Part shown: positions 1 to 26,010 of the stretch, in pieces | Numbering within the stretch: the first letter of the stretch is position 1 | Layout: each line of letters opens with the position of its first letter | Assembly (NCBI RefSeq): GCF_964204865.1 | Contig: NC_135253.1 | Span: forward strand, 4,960,001 to 5,024,000 | Direction: 5' to 3' | DNA: 64,000 nt | From: Styela clava | Taxonomy: Eukaryota | Notes under the pieces: model-generated | Database searches by the model: none | What the model was told of the DNA's origin: nothing | What the model saw: only the letters and a program-made list of their open reading frames with translations | Program-made: the position numbers and the translations under genes

Positions 1-766
1 GCCGTCAAAATGATCAGAGATATGGATGAGGGTAAGAACTATAAATTGCCAGTATTCTTAGTTATACCCAGTAGTGTAGATTGATTTCGTTTATCCAAAA
101 TTTTGAATTGGTATCATTTGTGACAAAACAATGTGAGGAAATCAATCAGTTGTATACGTTCTGGCCATTTATCACTTGTGGTTTTTTATCAACTCTAACC
201 CCAAGAAACACATCGTGGATGTCTATCTGTCTACGATTGCTGTTCGTCTCAAATTAGCATGTCGAAAACGTCTCTGTAAAATAGGATTCCCTCTAAAATT
301 ATTTACTATGTAACGTCACTCAAGCCATAGACGATCTTTGCTTTTGTGCTTGTAGAATGAAACAAAGAGAATACAAGAAAATTTAGATTTTGAAATACAA
401 AATTAATTCGTTTTCACGTTCTATAGCCATTTACCTAAGCACAAAATCACGAATAAAGTAAGTTTACTTTACGAGCATTGTGTGCAGAATAAAAACGCTT
501 ACTAATGCTTGATTATAATTTATATTACCAGTATTTTAATTAAACAAATTACACCTATATACTATTAGCGAGGACCCTATTGAAGTGCGCGGTCATCGCG
601 GCTGCATTTGTGCAGTCGCTTAATTAAGCCTGGCCCTGACGAAAGCTAAACTAATTAACTGAAAATTACAATCATTTAATGAGATATTTTACTATATAAT
701 TTCTTGCTCATTTCAGATGAATTCAACCATTTTAGAAATGCTCAGTCCGTGGAAGACTTCGAATAA
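1..766 (+). CDS. Styelin-like precursor, copy A, 5'-truncated by the window; join(<1..31,717..766)
   Basis: Encodes ...AVKMIRDMDE-D-EFNHFRNAQSVEDFE*, identical to copies B and C. Donor gtaaga at 32, acceptor cag at 714-716, TAA at 764-766. Confidence 0.85.
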
Positions 767-2999
767 TCTTCATGATGTTGAATGTTTACAGTGATAGTAG
801 TATAAGAAAAACGAACAAACAAGCAACTTTTTTGATTCAAAATCTTGATTCAAATCTTTGTTTGATTATTTAAGAGAAAGATATCATTCATTGATCAGTA
901 TATCTATGTTTTAATACAGAGTGAATATTTAAACTAACCAAACATATTTTTATCCTTTAATTCAACAAAATTTATGAATATTATTTGGTGTTATTCTTTC
1001 TACTATCATGTCATACATGCTGCTTTGCATCCGAGTATTTTTCGGAATAATAAAAGCTGGAACACAGTTTTGTATGATTTTTTTCATTCAGTGAATCAGA
1101 TTATTTTTCCGATAAAACAAATGCTTTAAAGTTGCGCTATTTCAGTTTATTGCGCAGCTTTGTTTGTGATATTTTGCATCGATATCGAAAGAAAGGTTGT
1201 CGTAAATCAGGGGCGATTATTCACCGTCGGGATTGGTGTCTTTAAATTTCAAGAAAGCCGGATAAGTTGTAAATTTGGAATTAAACGGAAATAAATTGCA
1301 AAAGTGTTATTGTTAATAGTAGGGTAATTTCGCACAAGTTGACTCTTTGGTGTAGTCAATGCATTTATATATTTGAAAAATTCTTTTCCTAGGCTATTTC
1401 CCAACAACAATAGCAATTTAGCAAAACAATCCTTGTTTACACATCGTGCCTTATAAACCCTATCCAAATGTAGACGATTTTATCCTGAAAACTATATTAC
1501 ACTGCGAAAAATTTAAAAACAAATAATTCGTATTGTTCTGGAACAACTCAAATGTCACGGGTGAAAACCCCGAAATCTACATTCGGTAAATTCGGTGATT
1601 CGAAGTTAAGCTTGACGTATCGTTTCGAATAAAACCTCTTGCTAGCATATATGGATCAAGATCGACATCAGGGTTCCGAGTTTAATATAAGCGGACAAAC
1701 CATTGCACAGTCGTTTATATAAATTGTCAATTCCAAACAAGGTTAAAATCTTCGAGCTTGATTTCGTAAAGTTGGAAACAAGTTCTTGCCAGGCTCTAAG
1801 TTCGAGAGATAGTGAATATTACACCCTTTGACTACATAGTGACTAGTAGAAAAAGCACCTATTATAGAGATTCCGTGATTATAGACCGTCTTTACCTGAA
1901 AATGCATTAATCCGTTCCAAGACCCTACAAATCTCGGACATAATATTTGACTGGGTTAAGCAAAGACCGTGGAGAGTGGGAGAATGGCGGCCGGAAAAGG
2001 TGAGGGAAGGCGTTAAAAGATGAAATCTTTATCTCTTTTATTTTGCAGTTTTATTCATTTTATTTTTCTTTAGTTTTAACTGTTACGCGTATCGTAATCT
2101 TCTCAACTGAAACTGAATGAGACTTATTGTACGTATCCGCGGGAAACGAACGGGCTAATGGTATGACAGGCGTGTGCCAGGGCAGGTACCCCGGACTTTA
2201 ATTTTTATATTGCTCAGGGCATCATTCGTTGATTTAAGAAAACAAATGTAATTACGTAGCATCGTCATTATCAAATGAGTGAACCTGACTCCCAAATTAC
2301 CATCTGCCAATAAAAGAGAATTAAGACCGGAAATCTTCTTCTATTTTGCGAGTCGGTGCTGATTTAAATATTTCATGTCAGCTGTTATGATTTTATTTTT
2401 GATTATAAATTAATATTGTCAACCTAAACTGCGCCTACATAATATTTAAGAGCCATTTTGTACGCTCTAAGTTGTAAGAAATGACTTTCATGCCGACTGT
2501 AATTTACTGCCGTGTCGCATACGACTGCCGTCGATTACAATAAAAAATGAAATAATTGTAAAATGTTTTCAAATTCAAACGTTGACGGCGGCGCCAGGAT
2601 ATATGTGCCATATTCGGTATTTTTACAAACACGAACAACGATACTCGAAGTTCGCGATATTCGAATAAGAAAATCGAATTTAGCATCCGTGCTTCAAGCA
2701 CTGCATTAAATTAACCTAGAATAAACAAATATCACTACACTCATTTTTTGTTTTCGTCCGTGGGAAATTTTACGTTAGTCAATATATTTTCACAAAAAGA
2801 ATTCTCGTAAGTTGGATTTTTCGCATGTAGAGCCTTTTGTAGGTAGATTTTCTACTGTAGATTCGAGCACAAAAAATTGTTTTATTTTGTTATTGATCTA
2901 ACGGCATTGTTCGGGGTCCTGGCAGAAATGTTGAGTTAAAACGCAAAATTTCTTAAAGAAAGCTATTTTAATTTATTGCCACACCGACTTTGAACGAAT

Positions 3000-3247
3000 T
3001 CAGTGAGAAGGAAACAAGCTTTTACAACATTGTGTATTTTCCAACAGGATCTTTCTAGCTGGTTTCACCGATATGGCAGTGGCACTCGGATACTGGTATA
3101 GGCTTTGTGGCGCAAGGAGATTGAAATTGCTCGCAAGTTTCAGATTAATTGAACTAAAAGCTCGTTTCGTGGGCACATCACTAAAAATTGGCACTTCTCC
3201 GCGGGCCGCACAGTTATTCTTTGCGGGCCGCAGTTTGCACACCCCTG
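3000..3247 (-). mobile_element. hAT (Charlie/Buster-like) deletion-derivative relic inside the repeat unit
   Basis: Minus strand starts CAGGGGTGTGCAAACTGCGGCCCGC, a Charlie-type terminus. It continues into a frameshifted IRV/ATAISVKPARKILLENTQC...PSH* that resembles Charlie/Buster transposase C-termini. The other end was not found. Confidence 0.55.
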
Positions 3248-4101
3248 CTATAATGGCCTAAATTTAATTTTTCGATGTTTTCGAACCAAAAAAATCAAAC
3301 GTTGAATTGGGTGGGTAATTTTCATTAGATTCATATTATTTAGCCAAAATAGATTTTTTTGCGTAGATGCCATGGAATTTATTTGCGTTGGTCAATTTTC
3401 GCGTGGGAAAAATTCCCCAAATAGGCAAACCTCACAGTAGGTCGTGCCATATGTGAGAAAAACATTAGCTAACTAATACCAGTATTCTAAGATCGTTTCA
3501 TAAGAAATTAATATTTGTGTTAATTAGATTGCTTGTTGCAAATAAGTAAAAACTTGAGCCGTGATTGATTAAATGGTATGATTTGCCTAAAGCATGAAAC
3601 TAGTTCATTTAGGCTTTACTGATTACATTCTTCACAAATCCCAAGGTTACAACTCATCTGTTTATGTAACAACTGAAGTCATTTCAATTTGGAATGAACA
3701 ATATTTTTACAGCCTAAAAATATCTCACGTCACTCACGAATGAGTTTACTCTGGTGGTGATGAGCAATCCACATTGTAATATAATAGGTTAAGCAGAATC
3801 CAACTATGCCGACAATTGTTTGTTTCTATGTATGAGATTAGTTAGTGGAAACTAATTAGGTTTAATATACAGAAATAATTATGATACATAGTTTTCACAT
3901 TATTTTAGCATCATATTTAGAATATGTAACAGAATAACTGACCACATATGTTTCCACATTTAAACGAAGCTGTCAAAAGTTTTACAAAATTCTACCCAAT
4001 TCAACGAAAAAGTAAGGCAAATTAACGCAAATTAATTCGAAACTCTATTGATTTTTTTTTTGTGATGAACTTATTACATATCAGTATGGCCTATGATTTG
4101 T

Positions 4102-4228
4102 ATTTATTGCTTACAAAAGTGCTTCCTGTTTGAAAAATAGGGCATACATATGGATTAAACGAGGATTTATTGCTTACAAAAGTGCTTCCTGTTTAAATAA
4201 TAGGGCATACATATGGATTAAACGAGGA
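4102..4228 (+). repeat. 63-bp tandem duplication just upstream of the TATA box (also 9604-9730)
   Basis: atttattgcttacaaaagtgcttcctgttt...gggcatacatatggattaaacgagg occurs at 4102 and again at 4165. Confidence 0.93.
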
Positions 4229-4276
4229 ATTCCAGATGTTTATGATGACGCCGTTTCCAGGATTGTCCAGAATCTC

Positions 4277-4361
4277 TATAAAAGAGAAGAAAATTTTAGT
4301 CGAGCACCAACCACTCTATCAGAAACTGACGAACGATCTTCTTGAGACAAGGATAAATCAG
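4277..4361 (+). promoter_or_regulatory. TATA box and predicted non-coding first exon of copy B
   Basis: TATAAAA at 4277-4283; strong donor CAG|gtgaga at 4361/4362; pyrimidine tract plus cag acceptor at 4531-4533 (alternative cag 4538-4540) just before the ATG. TSS inferred near 4305-4310. Confidence 0.65.
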
Positions 4362-4541
4362 GTGAGATTTGTAACTTTGTATTCCGTTACACACAGTGGT
4401 AAATCCATTTATACTTTATACGGACAATTCTTTGTTTTTGTCATGAATCTAAGTTGGCATAAATGGTGTAAATTGGGAAGTTTATTTGTTATTCCTCTTA
4501 ATTTTATTCCTCTTTCTCCTTTCGCCGCTGCAGAAAACAGA

Positions 4542-6267
4542 ATGATGAAATCCACAATCATTTTATTATTGGTAGCAATGTTGGTTGTCAACAGCGACGC
4601 CGGTTTTTTCGGGAAAGTTGGTAAAGCCATTAAGAAGACCGTGACCAGCCCGTAAGTCGTGATTTATTTGCGTTTTATCGATATATATTATTTTAATTAG
4701 GGATTGGTTTAAATTTATTTTAATACTTTACGTTAAGACTCATTGACGGTAACACGTTACCTTTTTTAAATGAATATCTATCTTTCGATGTTTCATTTAC
4801 ACTATATTTAAAAATCACAACAACTTCATCAATCACAAATTGGTCAAAATAATCTGTAGAAAACATCCTGATCCAGTTCGACTATGCATATTTCACTTTA
4901 TAAATAATTTGCATAGAATACAATGTGATTGCAGCAGTGACTGATATACTGTTTAACATTATAATCTAGTTAGGTAAAGTAAACTCACAAAATTCTAGAC
5001 TTTGTCCTTTATTTGATTATTTTAGGACGGGGAAAAAAGTGGCCAAAAAGCTTGCTCAGCTTACTGCTAAAGCGGCCCTTTTTGGTATTCTTGGAGATAT
5101 GCGATCTTTAAGAGAATTGGTGAGAATGCTAATTTTAGTTCAACAACCTACTTTGTTTAGCAATATTGGAGAGTGAAATGAACTGTAATTCACTATATAG
5201 CATTAAATTCATACATAACGAGTTACGTGTTTCACATCATCATATATATGCCGACAAGTGTGGAACAGACGAGAATCCAGGGTGGTCGTCGACTGTGATA
5301 TCCCTTGGAAACGAATTCTCAGCTTCTGCGAGTAGAGTTTCATTTTTTTAATATATTTTTTCAGCGTTGTTGTTGAATTTTACTGCGCGTCATATCCAGT
5401 CAAACGGTTGTTGCTTTATGATTAAGATTGCATTGAATATATTGATAAATAGTAATATTTTTTCCCCAAAGGACGATGCTGAAATGAATCAAATGATTGA
5501 GGCCGTCAAAATGATCAGAGATATGGATGAGGGTAAGTACTATAAATTGCCAGTATTCTTAGTTATACCCAGTAGTGTAGATTGATTTCGTTTATCCAAA
5601 ATTTTGAATTGGTATCATTTGTGACAAAACAATGTGAGGAAATCAATCAGTTGTATACGTTCTGGCCATTTATCACTTGTGGTTTTTTATCAACTCTAAC
5701 CCCAAGAAACACATCGTGGATGTCTATCTGTCTACGATTGCTGTTCGTCTCAAATTAGCATGTCGAAAACGTCTCTGTAAAATAGGATTCCCTCTAAAAT
5801 TATTTACTATGTAACGTCACTCAAGCCATAGACGACCTTTGCTTTTGTGCTTGTAGAATGAAACAAAGAGAATACAAGAAAATTTAGATTTTGAAATACA
5901 AAATTAATTCGTTTTCACGTTCTATAGCCATTTACCTAAGCACAAAATCACGAATAAAGTAAGTTTACTTTACGAGCATTGTGTGCAGAATAAAAACGCT
6001 TACTAATGCTTGATTATAATTTATATTACCAGTATTTTAATTAAATAAATTACACCTATATACTATTAGCGAGGACCCTATTGAAGTGCGCGGTCAACGC
6101 GGCTGCATTTGTGCAGTCGCTTAATTAAGCCTGGCCCTGACGAAAGCTAAACTAATTAACTGAAAATTACAATCATTTAATGAGATATTTTACCATATAA
6201 TTTCTTGCTCATTTCAGATGAATTCAACCATTTTAGAAATGCTCAGTCCGTGGAAGACTTCGAATAA
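4542..6267 (+). CDS. Styelin-like antimicrobial peptide precursor, copy B, 104 aa; CDS join(4542..4651,5026..5119,5472..5532,6218..6267)
   Basis: Canonical donors (gtaagt 4652, gtgaga 5120, gtaagt 5533) and acceptors (tag 5025, aag 5471, cag 6217) with compatible phases 2/0/1 give 315 nt ending in TAA. Protein: MMKSTIILLLVAMLVVNSDA-GFFGKVGKAIKKTVTSPTGKKVAKKLAQLTAKAALFGIL-G-DMRSLRELDDAEMNQMIEAVKMIRDMDEDEFNHFRNAQSVEDFE. The signal/GxFGK start, L-G-D-M junction and acidic tail match the styelin C precursor layout as I recall it. Confidence 0.9.
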
Positions 6268-6549
6268 TCTTCATGATGTTGAATGTTTACAGTGATAGTA
6301 GTATAAGAAAAACGAACAAACAAGCAACTTTTTTGATTCAAAATCTTGATTCAAATCTTTGTTTGATTATTTAAGAGAAAGATATTTTTCATTGATCAGT
6401 ATATCTATGTTTTAATACAGAGTGAATATTTAAACTAACCAAACATATTTTTATCCTTTAATTCAACAAAATTTATGAATATTATTTGGTGTTATTCTTT
6501 CTACTATCATGTCATACATGCTGCTTTGCATCCGAGTATTTTTCGGAAT

Positions 6550-6555
6550 AATAAA
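6550..6555 (+). terminator. Probable polyadenylation signal of copy B (equivalents 1049-1054 and 12052-12057)
   Basis: AATAAA ~280 nt after the stop, followed by a GT/T-rich tract (gttttgtatgattttttt). Confidence 0.6.
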
Positions 6556-8500
6556 AGCTGGAACACAGTTTTGTATGATTTTTTTCATTCAGTGAATCAG
6601 ATTATTTTTCCGATAAAACAAATGCTTTAAAGTTGCGCTATTTCAGTTTATTGCGCAGCTTTGTTTGTGATATTTTGCATCGATATCGAAAGAAAGGTTG
6701 TCGTAAATCAGGGGCGATTATTCACCGTCGGGATTGGTGTCTTTAAATTTCAAGAAAGCCGGATAAGTTGTAAATTTGGAATTAAACGGAAATAAATTGC
6801 AAAAGTGTTATTGTTAATAGTAGGGTAATTTCGCACAAGTTGACTCTTTGGTGTAGTCAATGCATTTATATATTTGAAAAATTCTTTTCCTAGGCTATTT
6901 CCCAACAACAATAGCAATTTAGCAAAACAATCCTTGTTTACACATCGTGCCTTATAAACCCTATCCAAATGTAGACGATTTTATCCTGAAAACTATATTA
7001 CACTGCGAAAAATTTAAAAAAAAAAAATTCGTATTGTTCTGGAACAACTCAAATGTCACGGGTGAAAACCCCGAAATCTACATTCGGTAAATTCGGTGAT
7101 TCGAAGTTAAGCTTGACGTATCGTTTCGAATAAAACCTCTTGCTAGCATATATGGATCAAGATCGACATCAGGGTTCCGAGTTTAATATAAGCGGACAAA
7201 CCTTTGCACAGTCGTTTATATAAATTGTCAATTCCAAACAAGGTTCAAATCTTCGAGCTTGATTTCGTAAAGTTGGAAACAAGTTCTTGCCAGGCTCTAA
7301 GTTCGAAAGATAGTGAATATTACACCCTTTGACTACATAGTGACTAGTAGAAAAAGCACCTATTATAGAGATTCCGTGATTATAGACCGTCTTTACCTGA
7401 AAATGCATTAATCCGTTCCAAGACCCTACAAACCTCGGACATAATATTTGACTGGGTTAAGCAAAGACCGTGGAGAGTGGGAGAATGGCGGCCGGAAAAG
7501 GTGAGGGAAGGCGTTAAAAGATGAAATCTTTATCTCTTTTATTTTGCAGTTTTATTCATTTTATTTTTCTTTAGTTTTAACTGTTACGCGTATCGTAATC
7601 TTCTCAACTGAAACTGAATGAGACTTATTGTACGTATCCGCGGGAAACGAACGGGCTAATGGTATGACAGGCGTGTGCCAGGGCAGGTACCCCGGACTTT
7701 AATTTTTATATTGCTCACGGCATCATTCGTTGATTTAAGAAAACAAATGTAATTACGTAGCATCGTCATTATCAAATGAGTGAACCTGACTCCCAAATTA
7801 CCATCTGCCAATAAAAGAGAATTAAGACCGGAAATCTTCTTCTATTTTGCGAGTCGGTGCTGATTTAAATATTTCATGTCAGCTGTTATGATTTTATTTT
7901 TGATTATAAATTAATATTGTCAACCCAAACTGCGCCTACATAATATTTAAGAGCCAGTTTGTACGCTCTAAGTTGTAAGAAATGACTTTCATGCCGACTG
8001 TAATTTACTGCCGTGTCGCATACGACTGCCGTCGATTACAATAAAAAATGAAATAATTGTAAAATGTTTTCAAATTCAAACGTTGACGGCGGCGCCAGGA
8101 TATATGTGCCATATTCGGTATTTTTACAAACACGAACAACGATACTCGAAGTTCGCGATATTCGAATAAGAAAATCGAATTTAGCATCCGTGCTTCAAGC
8201 ACTGCATTAAATTAACCTAGAATAAACAAATATCACTACACTCATTTTTTGTTTTCGTCCGTGGGAAATTTTACGTTAGTCAATATATTTTCACAAAAAG
8301 AATTCTCGTAAGTTGGATTTTTCGCATGTAGAGCCTTTTGTAGGTAGATTTTCTACTGTAGATTCGAGCACAAAAAATTGTTTTATTTTGTTATTGATCT
8401 AACGGCATTGTTCGGGGTCCTGGCAGAAATGTTGAGTTAAAACGCAAAATTTCTTAAAGAAAGCTATTTTAATTTATTGCCACACCGACTTTGAACGAAT

Positions 8501-8748
8501 TCAGTGAGAAGGAAACAAGCTTTTACAACATTGTGTATTTTCCAACAGGATCTTTCTAGCTGGTTTCACCGATATGGCAGTGGCACTCGGATACTGGTAT
8601 AGGCTTTGTGGCGCAAGGAGATTGAAATTGCTCGCAAGTTTCAGATTAATTGAACTAAAAGCTCGTTTCGTGGGCACATCACTAAAAATTGGCACTTCTC
8701 CGCGGGCCGCACAGTTATTCTTTGCGGGCCGCAGTTTGCACACCCCTG
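8501..8748 (-). mobile_element. Second copy of the hAT relic (in unit 2)
   Basis: Same as 3000-3247, shifted by 5501. Confidence 0.55.
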
Positions 8749-9778
8749 CTATAATGGCCTAAATTTAATTTTTCGATGTTTTCGAACCAAAAAAATCAAA
8801 CGTTGAATTGGGTGGGTAATTTTCATTAGATTCATATTATTTAGCCAAAATAGATTTTTTTTGCGTAGATGCCATGGAATTTATTTGCGTTGGTCAATTT
8901 TCGCGTGGGAAAAATTCCCCAAATAGGCAAACCTCACAGTAGGTCGTGCCATATGTGAGAAAAACATTAGCTAACTAATACCAGTATTCTAAGATCGTTT
9001 CATAAGAAATTAATATTTGTGTTAATTAGATTGCTTGTTGCAAATAAGTAAAAACTTGAGCCGTGATTGATTAAATGGTATGATTTGCCTAAAGCATGAA
9101 ACTAGTTCATTTAGGCTTTACTGAATACATTCTTCACAAATCCCAAGGTTACAACTCATCTGTTTATGTAACAACTGAAGTCATTTCAATTTGGAATGAA
9201 CAATATTTTTACAGCCTAAAAATATCTCACGTCACTCACGAATGAGTTTACTCTGGTGGTGATGTGCAATCCACATTGTAATATAATAGGTTAAGCAGAA
9301 TCCAACTATGCCGACAATTGTTTGTTTCTATGTATGAGATTAGTTAGTGGAAACTAATTAGGTTTAATATACAGAAATAATTATGATACATAGTTTTCAC
9401 ATTATTTTAGCATCATATTTAGAATATGTAACAGAATAACTGACCACATATGTTTCCACATTTAAACGAAGCTGTCAAAAGTTTTACAAAATTCTACCCA
9501 ATTCAACGAAAAAGTAAGGCAAATTAACGCAAATTAATTCGAAACTCTATTGATTTTTTTTTTGTGATGAACTTATTACATATCAGTATGGCCTATGATT
9601 TGTATTTATTGCTTACAAAAGTGCTTCCTGTTTGAAAAATAGGGCATACATATGGATTAAACGAGGATTTATTGCTTACAAAAGTGCTTCCTGTTTAAAT
9701 AATAAGGCATACATATGGATTAAACGAGGAATTCCAGATGTTTATGATGACGCCGTTTCCAGGATTGTCCAGAATCTC

Positions 9779-9863
9779 TATAAAAGAGAAGAAAATTTTA
9801 GTCGAGCACCAACCACTCTATCAGAAACTGACGAACGATCTTCTTGAGACAAGGATAAATCAG
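9779..9863 (+). promoter_or_regulatory. TATA box and predicted non-coding first exon of copy C
   Basis: Same sequence as 4277-4361, shifted by 5502. Confidence 0.65.
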
Positions 9864-10043
9864 GTGAGATTTGTAACTTTGTATTCCGTTACACACAGTG
9901 GTAAATCCATTTATACTTTATACGGACAATTCTTTGTTTTTGTCATGAATCTAAGTTGGCATAAATGGTGTAAATTGGGAAGTTTATTTGTTATTCCTCT
10001 TAATTTTATTCCTCTTTCTCCTTTCGCCGCTGCAGAAAACAGA

Positions 10044-11769
10044 ATGATGAAATCCACAATCATTTTATTATTGGTAGCAATGTTGGTTGTCAACAGCGAC
10101 GCCGGTTTTTTCGGGAAAGTTGGTAAAGCCATTAAGAAGACCGTGACCAGCCCGTAAGTCGTGATTTATTTGCGTTTTATCGATATATATTATTTTAATT
10201 AGGGATTGGTTTAAATTTATTTTAATACTTTACGTTAAGACTCATTGACGGTAACACGTTACCTTTTTTAAATGAATATCTATCTTTCGATGTTTCATTT
10301 ACACTATATTTAAAAATCACAACAACTTCATCAATCACAAATTGGTCAAAATAATCTGTAGAAAACATCCTGATCCAGTTCGACTATGCATATTTCACTT
10401 TATAAATAATTTGCATAGAATACAATGTGATTGCAGCAGTGACTGATATACTGTTTAACATTATAATCTAGTTAGGTAAATTAAACTCACAAAATTCTAG
10501 ACTTTGTCCTTTATTTGATTATTTTAGGACGGGGAAAAAAGTGGCCAAAAAGCTTGCTCAGCTTACTGCTAAAGCGGCCCTTTTTGGTATTCTTGGAGAT
10601 ATGCGATCTTTAAGAGAATTGGTGAGAATGCTAATTTTGGTTCAACAACCTACTTTGTTTAGCAATATTGGAGAGTGAAATGAACTGTAATTCACTATAT
10701 AGCATTAAATTCATACATAACGAGTTACGTGTTTCACATCATCATATATATGCCGACAAGTGTGGAACAGACGAGAATCCAGGGTGGTCGTCGACTGTGA
10801 TATCCCATGGAAACGAATTCTCAGCTTCTGCGAGTAGAGTTTCATTTTTTTAATATATTTTTTCAGCGTTGTTGTTGAATTTTACTGCGCGTCATATCCA
10901 GTCAAACGGTTGTTGCTTTATGATTAAGATTGCATTGAATATATTGATAAATAGTAATATTTTTTCCCCAAAGGACGATGCTGAAATGAATCAAATGATT
11001 GAGGCCGTCAAAATGATCAGAGATATGGATGAGGGTAAATACTATAAATTGCCAGTATTCTTAGTTATACCCAGTAGTGTAGATTGATTTCGTTTATCCA
11101 AAATTTTGAATTGGTATCATTTGTGACAAAACAATGTGAGGAAATCAATCAGTTGTATACGTTCTGGCCATTTATCACTTGTGGTTTTTTATCAACTCTA
11201 ACCCCAAGAAACACATCGTGGATGTCTATCTGTCTACGATTGCTGTTCGTCTCAAATTAGCATGTCGAAAACGTCTCTGTAAAATAGGATTCCCTCTAAA
11301 ATTATTTACTATGTAACGTCACTCAAGCCATAGACGACCTTTGCTTTTGTGCTTGTAGAATGAAACAAAGAGAATACAAGAAAATTTAGATTTTGAAATA
11401 CAAAATTAATTCGTTTTCACGTTCTATAGCCATTTACCTAAGCACAAAATCACGAATAAAGTAAGTTTACTTTACGAGCATTGTGTGCAGAATAAAAACG
11501 CTTACTAATGCTTGATTATAATTTATATTACCAGTATTTTAATTAAATAAATTACACCTATATACTATTAGCGAGGACCCTATTGAAGTGCGCGGTCAAC
11601 GCGGCTGCATTTGTGCAGTCGCTTAATTAAGCCTGGCCCTGACGAAAGCTAAACTAATTAACTGAAAATTACAATCATTTAATGAGATATTTCACCATAT
11701 AATTTCTTGCTCATTTCAGATGAATTCAACCATTTTAGAAATGCTCAGTCCGTGGAAGACTTCGAATAA
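10044..11769 (+). CDS. Styelin-like antimicrobial peptide precursor, copy C; CDS join(10044..10153,10528..10621,10974..11034,11720..11769)
   Basis: Coding exons read identical to copy B at +5502. The last donor is gtaaat (11035) rather than gtaagt. Confidence 0.88.
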
Positions 11770-13109
11770 TCTTCATGATGTTGAATGTTTACAGTGATAG
11801 TAGTATAAGAAAAACAAACAAACAAGCAACTTTTTTGATTCAAAATCTTGATTCAAATCTTTGTTTGATTATTTAAGAGAAAGATATTTTTCATTGATCA
11901 GTATATCTATGTTTTAATACAGAGTGAATATTTAAACTAACCAAACATATTTTTATCCTTTAATTCAACAAAATTTATGAATATTATTTGGTGTTATTCT
12001 TTCTACTATCATGTCATACATGCTGCTTTGCATCCGAGTATTTTTCGGAATAATAAAAGCTGGAACACAGTTTTGTATGATTTTTTTCATTCAGTGAATC
12101 AGATTATTTTTCCGATAAAACAAATGCTTTAAAGTTGCGCTATTTCAGTTTATTGCGCAGCTTTGTTTGTGATATTTTGCATCGATATCGAAAGAATGGT
12201 TGTCGTAAATCAGGGGCGATTATTCACCGTCGGGATTGGTGTCTTTAAATTTCAAGAAAGCCGGATAAGTTGTAAATTTGGAATTGAACGGAAATAAATT
12301 GCAAAAGTGTTATTGTTAATAGTAGGGTAATTTCGCACAAGTTGACTCTTTGGTGTAGTCAATGCATTTATATATTTGAAAAATTCTTTTCCTAGGCTAT
12401 TTCCCAACAACAATAGCAATTTAGCAAAACAATCCTTGTTTACACATCGTGCCTTATACACCCTATCCAAATGTAGACGATTTTATCCTGAAAACTATGT
12501 TACACTGCAAAAAATTAAAAACAAATAATTCGTATTGTTCTGGAACAACTCAAATGTCACCGGTGAAAACCCGGAAATCTACGTTATTCGGGGATTGGAA
12601 GTTAATCCGAATCAAAATCCACTTTTCAGCTTGACGTATCGTTTCGAATAAAACCTCTTGCTAGCATATAGATCAAGATCGACATCAGGGTTCCGAGTTT
12701 AATATAAGCGGACGAACCATTGCACAGTCGTTTATATAAATTCTTAATTCCAAACAAGAAGAGGTTTAAATTTTCGAGCTTGATTTCCTAAAGTTGGAAA
12801 CAAGTTCTTGCCAGGCTCCAAGGCCGAAAGATAGTGAATATTATACTCTTTGACTACATAGTGACTAGTAGAAATAGCATTTATTATAGAGATACGAAGT
12901 TTTTTTTTCATCTTCAAAATCCGAATATGCAACTTCGCTTCCCAATTTAACGAAAACTCCCGACTTTAGACCTAAATGCTAAACATTAGAATCTTGCGGT
13001 TTCCACAATACGTTAGGTGTCAGTGTAGCACAACAACGTACTTTGCAAAAATACCGGTTTTCCGTGCAATTTTCGTTTAATTTATCCGCGGCATATCGAC
13101 CCTCTACAA

Positions 13110-22432: not shown

Positions 22433-24637
22433 TCTAGGATTCGAACATTTTGAAGTTAACTTCAAATTTTTGTTAAATGAATTTTGGTGCTTAATTAAGA
22501 ACTGAATCAATCCACTGTCATTTACTGACAAACTTGATTTTCACCCATTTTTTTGGTATTGTAATTCGAACAACAAAAATGAAGTTATTATATGTCTGTC
22601 AAACAGAATCTCTATGATGCGACTGAAGTGTATACTCCTCCACTCCACCCAACTTCATGAAGATTGAAGTTTTGGGTTGTCCATGTATGATAAATACATT
22701 TTGGGATCTGTTTTCTACCATTCATCGCCAAAAACAAATGGAATGGTGTGCGACTAATTTACGACGAGAGAGAATGTTCTTAATGTCGCCTGGTTGTAAT
22801 ACTATAACCAGGTTGTTGACAAAACTAGGATTTCGAGTCCTCTGTGACACGGTTCATTCCATCTGAAGGGAAATCAAGAACGTGCTATTTCCTGTTTTGT
22901 TACAATTTCTGAGATATCTCGTGGAGTAGTATTTCCACTTCAAAATTGTGCTAAGGATTTTTTTTAAATGGTTCTCGTATGAGGCAGGTTTTCAAAACAA
23001 CACACACCGAAAGCTACATATATTAATTATACTAAAACGTGAAAGTCAAAATAGATCTATCTGTATAAAATAATGAAACAAAAACTTATCATAGGATTAA
23101 TTAAACAGCGAACGAATCAGGACGGTTGCGAAGCACAGATATGAGTCAAAAATAAACCCCAAAATACTTTGTTATTTTCGCAAAAACTAAAAATTTTGAC
23201 AAATATTCAAACTTGAGACCTGCCAATTCTGAAAGAGGAATAATAATAAAAAAATCTGGAAATAAGAGAACCTGCTTTATAAGATATACTTCCATTTGAA
23301 TTCGCAGCAGCGCGTTTTACTAAGCCTTCTATTTTCCCCCTCCCTATAGGTCTGATAATATTATTTGTAAATTATGAAAAAGTATTGAATAATGTTTCAA
23401 TTTAAAAATCACAATTGTAGCAAATTAATAAAAAATGACAAAACTAGTCGTATTTGACATTGTAATAAAGTTAAGCTGTTGTTGTTTTCACTGAAGAAAA
23501 TACAATTTAATCTTGTTTTTGTTATGATGCCACGCCGACCACTCTTGACGTTTTGGAATTTAATTATCTCGGATGTTGTATAGCAGTGTATATACCATAG
23601 AACCCTTTCCTGTTTTTTCATGAAAAAACACACGATCACGCATGCTTTTCGTCACGAAACTGCCAAACCGATACGGAAAAACAGTAAGGAATGTGAAAAA
23701 AGGTTTTTGACGTTTATCCGGCGAGATTTTTTCCACACGAATGCCCTTTTTATGCTATTTTTGGTACCGATGAAGAGATTTTGTACTGAGAGAGCGCACG
23801 GGTCCGTATATTTCGACCCGTGGGTCGTATGATCATGTGGGTGTTTCCGACACGTTGGTAACCCAATACTAGAATTGAGAAAAGTCTGTCTCAAACTTTA
23901 CTACTCAGACGTTCCACGTCATTCTATTTACTACGAAACACAAAAAGGAAGAAATTGGGAATTTTCGAAACCGTTGAATGAAGGAATTAATCAACATTAT
24001 TGACGCTATGGGGCTCATAGGCGTTCCAATATTTAAGATAACGTATATTACAATTTCCTGTAGGGATTGGTGATTTTTTAAGAGAGCAGATTGCGACATA
24101 ACTAGCCTGAGCAAAAAAAAAACTGAGACTTAATAGATGGATGCAACAGCCGCCAGGGTAAAGCTATCTTATTATCTTTCACGTAACCCAAAACCATTCA
24201 CAAAGTAAAAGATGCACATTTATCGTCCTGCTAAAGGTGGCTACTTCGGCTTTTGGGGTTTCGCTAAAACGGCAAATTAACCATTTACAGTTGTTCAAGT
24301 CACAACAGCTTATTAAAAGTCAAAGCTTTTTCAGTTTGAATAATAGTTTGGGATCTTTATACAAAAACAAATATCATGTCGACAACACACTTGGAAAAAT
24401 CAATCCGCTAAAATTTCATATTTTACCAAGCATAAACTTCGCAATGGATGTATTTACTTGCATGATTTAAAACGGTAATGGTAACCTCATAACGAAGCAA
24501 ACTCAAATGTTCGACGTTGATTAACGATAAATTTACATTGTTAACTGCGTTATTTCATTACAAGATGTTGAAAATCTGGCAACAAAGTTTATTTCTACAT
24601 TACGTTCGGCGGATCCAGTGTACAAAGCTGGTGACCG

Positions 24638-25347: not shown

Positions 25348-26010
25348 AAAGAGCGCGAAACAGCGCAAAACAGAGGAAAACAGCGCGAAACAGAAGGAAA
25401 CCAGCGCAAAACAGAAGGAAACAGCGCAAAACAGGAGACGCAGTCATTACCACCTCCTGCCACGAAAGAACCACGGCGCCTCTCGCCATGGTTTTATGGC
25501 GCTATTTCCGGTATATTTACAAGGTTATGTACCGGATTATAGGTCATCATGCGAAATTTTATCTACCTTTTTGGTGCTCCAGAAGTATGTGCAGCAATAT
25601 GTCGCACAACCTGAATTCGCTACACACACACACACACATACTATTTTCAGGTTGTGCGCCACCTTGGTGCACATACTTCTGGAGGTCCCTTTTTACCTAA
25701 CCCTAAAGCCAATCATATTCATATGGAAAATGTTCTAAATTATGGTACCCAAAATGTGTCACCAGCAGGGGCATTCCTGCCATTACAGCATTACTGGCTA
25801 CATACGTTGGTTTGTGTTTTTAATTTGCTGCCGTGGTACTCCAACTCAAAACAAGGTGCCCCGAACTCATTGCAAAAAAATTTTCCGCTTCACACTGTCT
25901 CCCTCTGTTTTGCGCTCTTTCGCGCTGTTTCCCCACTGTTTTGCGCTGTTTCCCTCTGTTTTGCGCTGTTTCGCGCTATTTTGCGCTCTTTGCGGTGTTT
26001 CGCGCTGTAT
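25348..26010. mobile_element. Foldback-like element with inverted arms of ~10-bp tandem repeats
   Basis: cagcgc(g/a)aaa and caga(a/g)g(g/a)aaa units at 25348-25444 are mirrored as ttt(t/c)gcgctg and tttccctctg units at 25894-26010. Confidence 0.8.
25577..25684. mobile_element. ~110-bp hairpin element (39-bp arms, CA-repeat loop) nested in the foldback element
   Basis: ctccagaagtatgtgcagcaatatgtcgcacaacctgaa versus ttcaggttgtgcgccaccttggtgcacatacttctggag; ttttt on both sides a few bases beyond the arms. Confidence 0.85.

Follow-up and report, generated by a model that had tools for sequence, protein, structure and literature searches.

At the left end of a 64,000-bp stretch of Styela clava DNA (contig NC_135253.1, positions 4,960,001 to 5,024,000, hereafter the window), a whole gene for a secreted cationic peptide is repeated in a real tandem array. 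The structure is evident from self-BLAST of the window, which is free of any N: only two of the 11 rows are long direct matches, 1-7372 against 5502-12893 (98.8%) and 1-1871 against 11004-12893 (96.2%), while the other nine are shorter than 215 bp and correspond to short local repeats. The units, whose boundaries were set by the junction, lie head-to-tail with a period of 5501-5502 bp. As the array is open at the left edge of the window, the copy number is at least three, in agreement with what the initial annotation had proposed from the sequence. That annotation also placed the end of the array at 12892; the end is indeed sharp, with the unit homology breaking off at a computed position of 12893. 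To the right of this position no unit sequence was matched by blastn with word size 7 in the window or, for the tail of the unit, by nhmmer, and local tblastn and blastn searches detected no diverged paralogue of the gene in the window. The copy number would probably vary between chromosomes.

The two complete units, B and C, each contain the entire five-exon gene together with about 2.4 kb of sequence upstream of its TATA box, which bears out the earlier claim that full copies own their promoter region. The units are 99.1-99.7% identical in their bodies and 98.6% identical over one whole unit. With a complete gene and promoter in each full unit, and at least 95% identity between units, the locus is a tandem whole-gene array.

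Divergence between unit bodies is 0.31% for B/C, 0.47% for A/B and 0.87% for A/C, values that agree with the recent expansion or homogenisation suggested at the outset. In their first 5118 bp, B and C are separated by 16 substitutions and one homopolymer indel, and in the 1,488 bp shared by all three units, tail excluded, there are 7 differing sites between A and B, 6 between B and C and 13 between A and C. The 315-nt coding sequence is the same in B and C, as are the 81 coding bases retained in A, so the differences between copies are non-coding, as had been noted. Against an expectation of 1.05 differences over 315 nt, a count of zero is unsurprising by chance (P(0) = 0.35; about 0.28 if copy A is included) and says nothing on selection; a reading of selection from the identical exons was therefore rejected for lack of power. 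The preference of the initial annotation for dosage over diversification is accordingly a conjecture.

The tail of the unit is informative about the origin of the array. Whereas the bodies of B and C are nearly the same, their last 383 bp are separated by 24 substitutions plus 5 indels, a divergence of 6.3% that is about 20 times the body rate (binomial p 3.5e-18) and that the initial annotation does not mention, and the step from 0.3% to 6% is sharp, without any intermediate level. The inner type of tail is present twice, in A and B, with a gap-free joint to the same upstream flank, and its longest exact match to the terminal type is 43 bp. Because A and B have the inner-type tail in common, today's terminal sequence was not the template for the inner junctions. 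A hybrid junction with an identity step inside older homology is what repeat-mediated non-allelic recombination leaves behind, and the sharp step suggests recent unequal crossing-over seeded on older homology. It also favours recent expansion on such homology over steady homogenisation.

We propose that an older second tail segment, about 94% identical, would once have lain upstream of the gene, either as a dispersed repeat or as the end of an older duplicate. The two old segments would have mispaired and crossed over, giving the hybrid junction and duplicating everything between them, promoter included, and later unequal exchanges between the near-identical units would have added copies. A repeat-seeded tandem array of a secreted cationic antimicrobial-type peptide gene is, in our judgement, the best overall explanation, and one that we rate somewhat above even chances.

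The tail was also considered as a transposon. It begins with a CACTG word, which we take to resemble CACTA-type transposon ends; outside the three tails this word is absent from the window, a search for a corresponding far end had no result, and the assignment is not supported. Separately, an 8-bp word stands on both sides of the unit junction (1861-1885 and 7362-7386), a possible microhomology or templated insertion.

The predicted precursor has 104 residues: a 20-residue signal peptide, judged from sequence, a 39-residue segment of net charge +9, and a 45-residue segment of net charge -9 that begins with Gly-Asp. It has no Cys, Tyr or Trp, and the peptide itself has no His. Residues 21-33 and 39-51 are amphipathic, with moments that 3.5% and 4.0%, respectively, of 5000 shuffled versions match or exceed; residues 49-59 are hydrophobic without a moment, a Pro lies between the two helices, and the first acidic residue past the signal is residue 61. 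This is the layout of a precursor of a linear cationic helical antimicrobial peptide (AMP), that is, a signal, a Cys-free cationic amphipathic segment and an anionic C-terminal segment. At Gly60-Asp61 a Gly amide donor would be followed by the acidic pro-piece, as in the styelins and botryllin. An anionic C-terminal helix, in the order signal-cationic-anionic, has been described for 17 of 22 Ciona candidates, and styelins are cleaved before Asp (PMC7387483); styelins also have a C-terminal pro-piece and a Gly that signals amidation (PMC8659048).

By analogy, the product is probably a secreted antimicrobial peptide. Each full copy would give the same 104-residue precursor, from which the signal would be removed; the acidic piece would mask the cationic peptide until cleavage before Asp61, with Gly60 serving as amide donor for the released peptide, and the amphipathic peptide would then attack microbial membranes. 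The outcome of the array would be a larger output of one peptide.

Searches for external homologues used single exons, with queries of 37-41 residues, which are weak for short peptides. Against proteins of 73-2000 residues, none of the 5 candidates for the exon-2 frame reached E <= 10, and none of the 11 for the exon-3 frame qualified either. With HMMER, exon 2 gave one match among 1.84 billion representatives, a 1257-residue protein that we label ankyrin-repeat NTPase-like from our own reading of its sequence; it aligned via its repeats and was discarded as spurious. A single-exon query had no match in PDB. In Pfam, where three exons were searched singly, one family appeared below its cut-off, cupiennin (PF17563; E = 0.73, 10.5 bits against 27), and membership of cecropin (PF00272) or cupiennin was rejected, as no score exceeded a curated cut-off. 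The Atlas returned cecropin clusters at 0.81, a lead only, given that a third of shuffled proteins reach that level. Assignment to the styelins or botryllin was likewise rejected (KHK motif absent, no His, and 39 residues compared with Phe/His-rich peptides of 31-37), as was assignment to the defensins (no Cys). The peptide motifs had no match in the literature searched. From its sequence, the peptide is a new antimicrobial candidate, previously unmatched.

The gene model was built on GT-AG introns and an open 315-nt coding sequence, and copy C follows from copy B by adding 5502 (Table 1). The coding exons of copy B are 4542-4651, 5026-5119, 5472-5532 and 6218-6267, and the two highest period-3 peaks of the window fall on exon 2 of C and of B. 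The 63-bp tandem repeat near the TATA box is present in both full units and is therefore older than their duplication; one of the differences between B and C (4203/9705) falls inside it.

Table 1 Features of the array (window coordinates; equivalents in the other copies in brackets)
Feature	Position	Strand	Remarks
Unit A, partial	1-1871	+	Cut by window edge; end of exon 4, last exon, 3' flank, inner-type tail
Unit B, complete	1872-7372	+	5501 bp; self-BLAST, blastn, divergence comparison
Unit C, complete, terminal	7373-12893	+	5521 bp; self-BLAST, blastn
Tail A, inner type	1489-1871	.	5 substitutions from B; 22 substitutions and 5 indels from C
Tail B, inner type	6990-7372	.	Divergence step at 6925-6995 (change-point scan)
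Tail C, terminal type	12492-12893	.	6.3% and 5 indels from inner type
63-bp tandem repeat (x2)	4102-4228 (C: 9604-9730)	+	About 50 bp upstream of TATA box
TATA box (4277-4284) and predicted non-coding exon 1	4277-4361 (C: 9779-9863)	+	GT donor at end; putative transcription start
Exon 2	4534-4651 (C: 10036-10153)	+	ATG at 4542; 20-residue signal and start of cationic peptide
Exon 3	5026-5119 (C: 10528-10621)	+	Remaining cationic peptide, Gly-Asp junction, start of acidic piece
Exon 4	5472-5532 (C: 10974-11034; A, end only: 1-31)	+	Acidic piece
Exon 4 splice donor	A 32-37; B 5533-5538; C 11035-11040	+	GTAAGA (A), GTAAGT (B), GTAAAT (C); all three differ
Exon 5	6218-6555 (C: 11720-12057)	+	Last 50 coding bases (stop ends at 6267); 3' untranslated region to first AATAAA at 6550
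Unit A, coding part of last exon	717-766	+	
Marker sites, 3' untranslated region	6314-6387	+	6314 and 6386/6387, 72 bp apart; jointly separate A, B and C in one RNA read

The non-coding differences include the exon-4 splice donor, a point absent from the initial annotation, so that non-coding cannot be equated with neutral. The donor matches the consensus at 6 of 9 positions in A, 7 of 9 in B and 6 of 9 in C, and all three copies differ again 24-27 nt before the exon-5 acceptor (690-693, 6191-6194 and 11693-11696). At either end of intron 4, A and C have changed separately within 3 bp, and B keeps the shared base at both. A failed exon-4 splice would add 17 codons up to a stop and alter the acidic piece only, leaving the mature peptide unchanged. 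In the 3' untranslated region, the marker offered by the initial annotation is real (885/886 against 6386/6387) but splits only A from B and C; it takes the second site of Table 1 to tag the transcript of each copy, and, if the copy number varies, dosage thereby becomes directly testable.

No strict kB site was found in the array. Sites with one mismatch number 43 in the window against 35 expected, which is no excess over chance. A near-palindromic kB-like site (3405-3420 and 8907-8922) precedes the TATA box by about 870 bp.

Other histories could account for the near-identity of the units and the step in the tail. The units might descend from an old tandem duplication whose age is about 20 times that of the last exchange, with a non-homologous junction at 1871/1872. 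Repeated unequal crossover or conversion would have kept the units alike, so that only the terminal edge escaped. DEFA1A3 combines edge divergence with a homogeneous interior (PMC4117965), and the tails of A and B are 1.3% apart compared with 0.47% in the body (p = 0.08), both of which agree with such a past; however, steady exchange should leave an age staircase, whereas one flat level and one step are seen, and in a toy model in which an old duplicate undergoes steady uniform crossover, at five rates, a single step of the observed kind arose in 0.3-3.5% of runs. We regard this history as rather unlikely. A fresh duplication with a non-homologous junction, in which the terminal tail came from a deeply diverged allele by ordinary crossover or by a template switch between homologues, would be in keeping with the polymorphism of ascidian genomes (heterozygosity of about 1.72% in Styela clava, PMC7540406), and the 8-bp word across the junction (1861-1868, 1878-1885) can mark a template switch. 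The word is AT-rich, however, and the scenario requires 6% divergence plus 5 indels between alleles as well as a breakpoint in the last 7-8% of the unit; we find it improbable. The array could also be wholly false, the assembly having placed two haplotypes of one single-copy gene end to end, with B a column-wise mixture of them. The divergence of 0.3-0.9% between copies is within the allelic range, and copy B has none of the 13 private variants in the shared 1,488 bp (1-1488, 5502-6989, 11004-12491), for which P is about 0.015-0.023 for any copy, post hoc. Moreover, in two places an A-only site is found within 3 bp of a C-only site (P about 0.012, post hoc), as column-wise polishing could yield. 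B is mostly like C on the left and like A on the right, an ordering that is not significant (p = 0.09). Against an artefact, one segment exists in three distinct versions, where two stacked haplotypes give two; the body differences are almost all substitutions; B carries tail variants of its own (7021, 7025, 7203); and the inner junction occurs twice, without a gap, as a sequence in its own right. An exact match of no more than 43 bases between the two types of tail is too short to mislead an assembler of long reads. A false array is thus very unlikely in our estimation, and a wrong copy count, for example through collapsed copies, is more likely than that. As to the tail of B, the changes at 7021 and 7025, which are not found in A or C, turn an A-rich stretch (7014-7027) into a run of 11 or more A, through slippage or consensus error.

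It may also be that the array is real and its peptide is not immune, being for example a venom or skin cytolytic peptide or a signalling peptide of another animal group. This would suit the lack of a sequence homologue, the nature of the sole leads (the sub-threshold cupiennin score and the cecropin clusters that a third of shuffled proteins equal) and the kB-like sites, which are no commoner than chance. The acidic piece that follows the peptide and the predicted cleavage before Asp without a dibasic site are nevertheless as in ascidian peptides (PMC7387483), one of which, Ciona KH.S908.1, also has the Leu-Gly-Asp junction, and we give the non-immune alternative little credence. Returning to the repeat-seeded antimicrobial array, several points weigh against it. 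A deeply diverged allele, or a single crossover between the members of an old tandem pair, could also explain the step; the thresholds of the toy model were chosen after the data had been seen; no further tail copy lies in the window, the predicted older upstream copy being expected beyond its left edge; and the tail has no convincing terminal repeats, so that a transposon nature is not supported. The lack of private body variants in B fits a recombinant origin but also consensus polishing. On the side of the peptide, exons 2 and 3 had no homologue in the single-exon searches, and the label "ascidian-like" is drawn from the design of the precursor.

To its right, the array borders a gene-poor stretch: in 12894-64000 (about 51 kb) there is no recognisable protein-coding gene among the 290 of 399 frames of 45 or more residues that were scanned. 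Pfam gave 0 of 144 and 3 of 146 frames with a match, all three below cut-off, a strict exon scan returned 6 rows, none of them convincing, and there were no Rfam or tRNA matches. A weak RVT_1 score on the minus strand (23908-24129, E = 0.0056, below cut-off) points to a possible decayed retroelement. Two arrays with a 10-bp period form an inverted pair about 500 bp apart (25348-25434 and 25905-26008), an arrangement resembling the termini of a small foldback or miniature element. Short dispersed repeats of 75-80% identity occur at 13111-13277/14320-14484 and at 21764-21962/58125-58330. A further short pair, 3200-3250/14570-14610, has GC-rich ends, which we presume to resemble those of hAT-type miniature elements.

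A resolved array of an ascidian-type helical peptide gene was not found in the titles and abstracts searched, a scope outside which most subscription literature lies. The architecture itself is already known from DEFA1A3 and Nv1, and current thinking is not overturned. If the copy number varies, the locus is small enough for copies to be counted by one long read. A bolder proposal, on which we would place only a small wager, is that the peptide represents an undescribed tunicate-type AMP family at a multi-allelic copy-number locus opened by flanking-repeat recombination, where the same peptide is made throughout and differences in intron-4 splicing (donor +5/+6; 24-27 nt before the acceptor) tune either how much each copy yields or the acidic pro-piece. 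If true, this would offer a 5.5-kb, single-read-sized invertebrate-chordate model of DEFA1A3.

As in human DEFA1A3, a whole AMP gene is organised in head-to-tail full repeats with an edge that is unlike the inner repeats. In DEFA1A3 the full repeats are flanked by partial repeats that are sequence-divergent and partly replaced by conversion, and copies are gained or lost by non-allelic recombination and conversion (PMC4117965). The analogy with defensins drawn in the initial annotation thus stands for the architecture and falls for the peptide, which has no Cys: unlike DEFA1A3, the Styela clava array has a 5.5-kb unit, encodes a Cys-free helical peptide and is known from one sequence. The Nv1 cluster of Nematostella, in which 14 of 18 copies are at 99% (PMC9842752), is similar in being made of near-identical tandem copies of an invertebrate secreted-peptide gene, for which recent duplication and concerted evolution are likewise undecided. 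Nv1, however, is a toxin of sodium channels, for which copy-number variation and a correlation with expression have been measured (PMC9842752), whereas the Styela clava array comes from sequence alone.

In its design, the peptide resembles known ascidian precursors. The order of signal, cationic peptide, Gly and C-terminal pro-piece is that of the styelins and botryllin (PMC8659048, PMC9966394), but the parts measure 20/39/45 residues within the 104-residue precursor, compared with 22/31-32/26, and the KHK motif common to the styelins and botryllin (PMC9966394) is absent. For botryllin, three similar transcripts are reported, which could not be distinguished as paralogues or isoforms (PMC9966394). 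The signal-cationic-anionic order without Cys is also that of Ciona Ci-MAM, Ci-PAP, Ci-META4 and KH.S908.1, the last of which has the same Leu-Gly-Asp junction in a by-eye comparison (PMC7387483). The array signal peptide differs from those of Ciona in fitting, by eye, neither of the two consensus signals, and the 104-residue precursor is slightly above the 50-100 residue filter of that study (PMC7387483). Among the Ciona peptides there is also a precedent for near-identical duplicates, since the Ci-META4 models KH.C14.152 and KH.C14.235 have the same cationic helix (PMC7387483).

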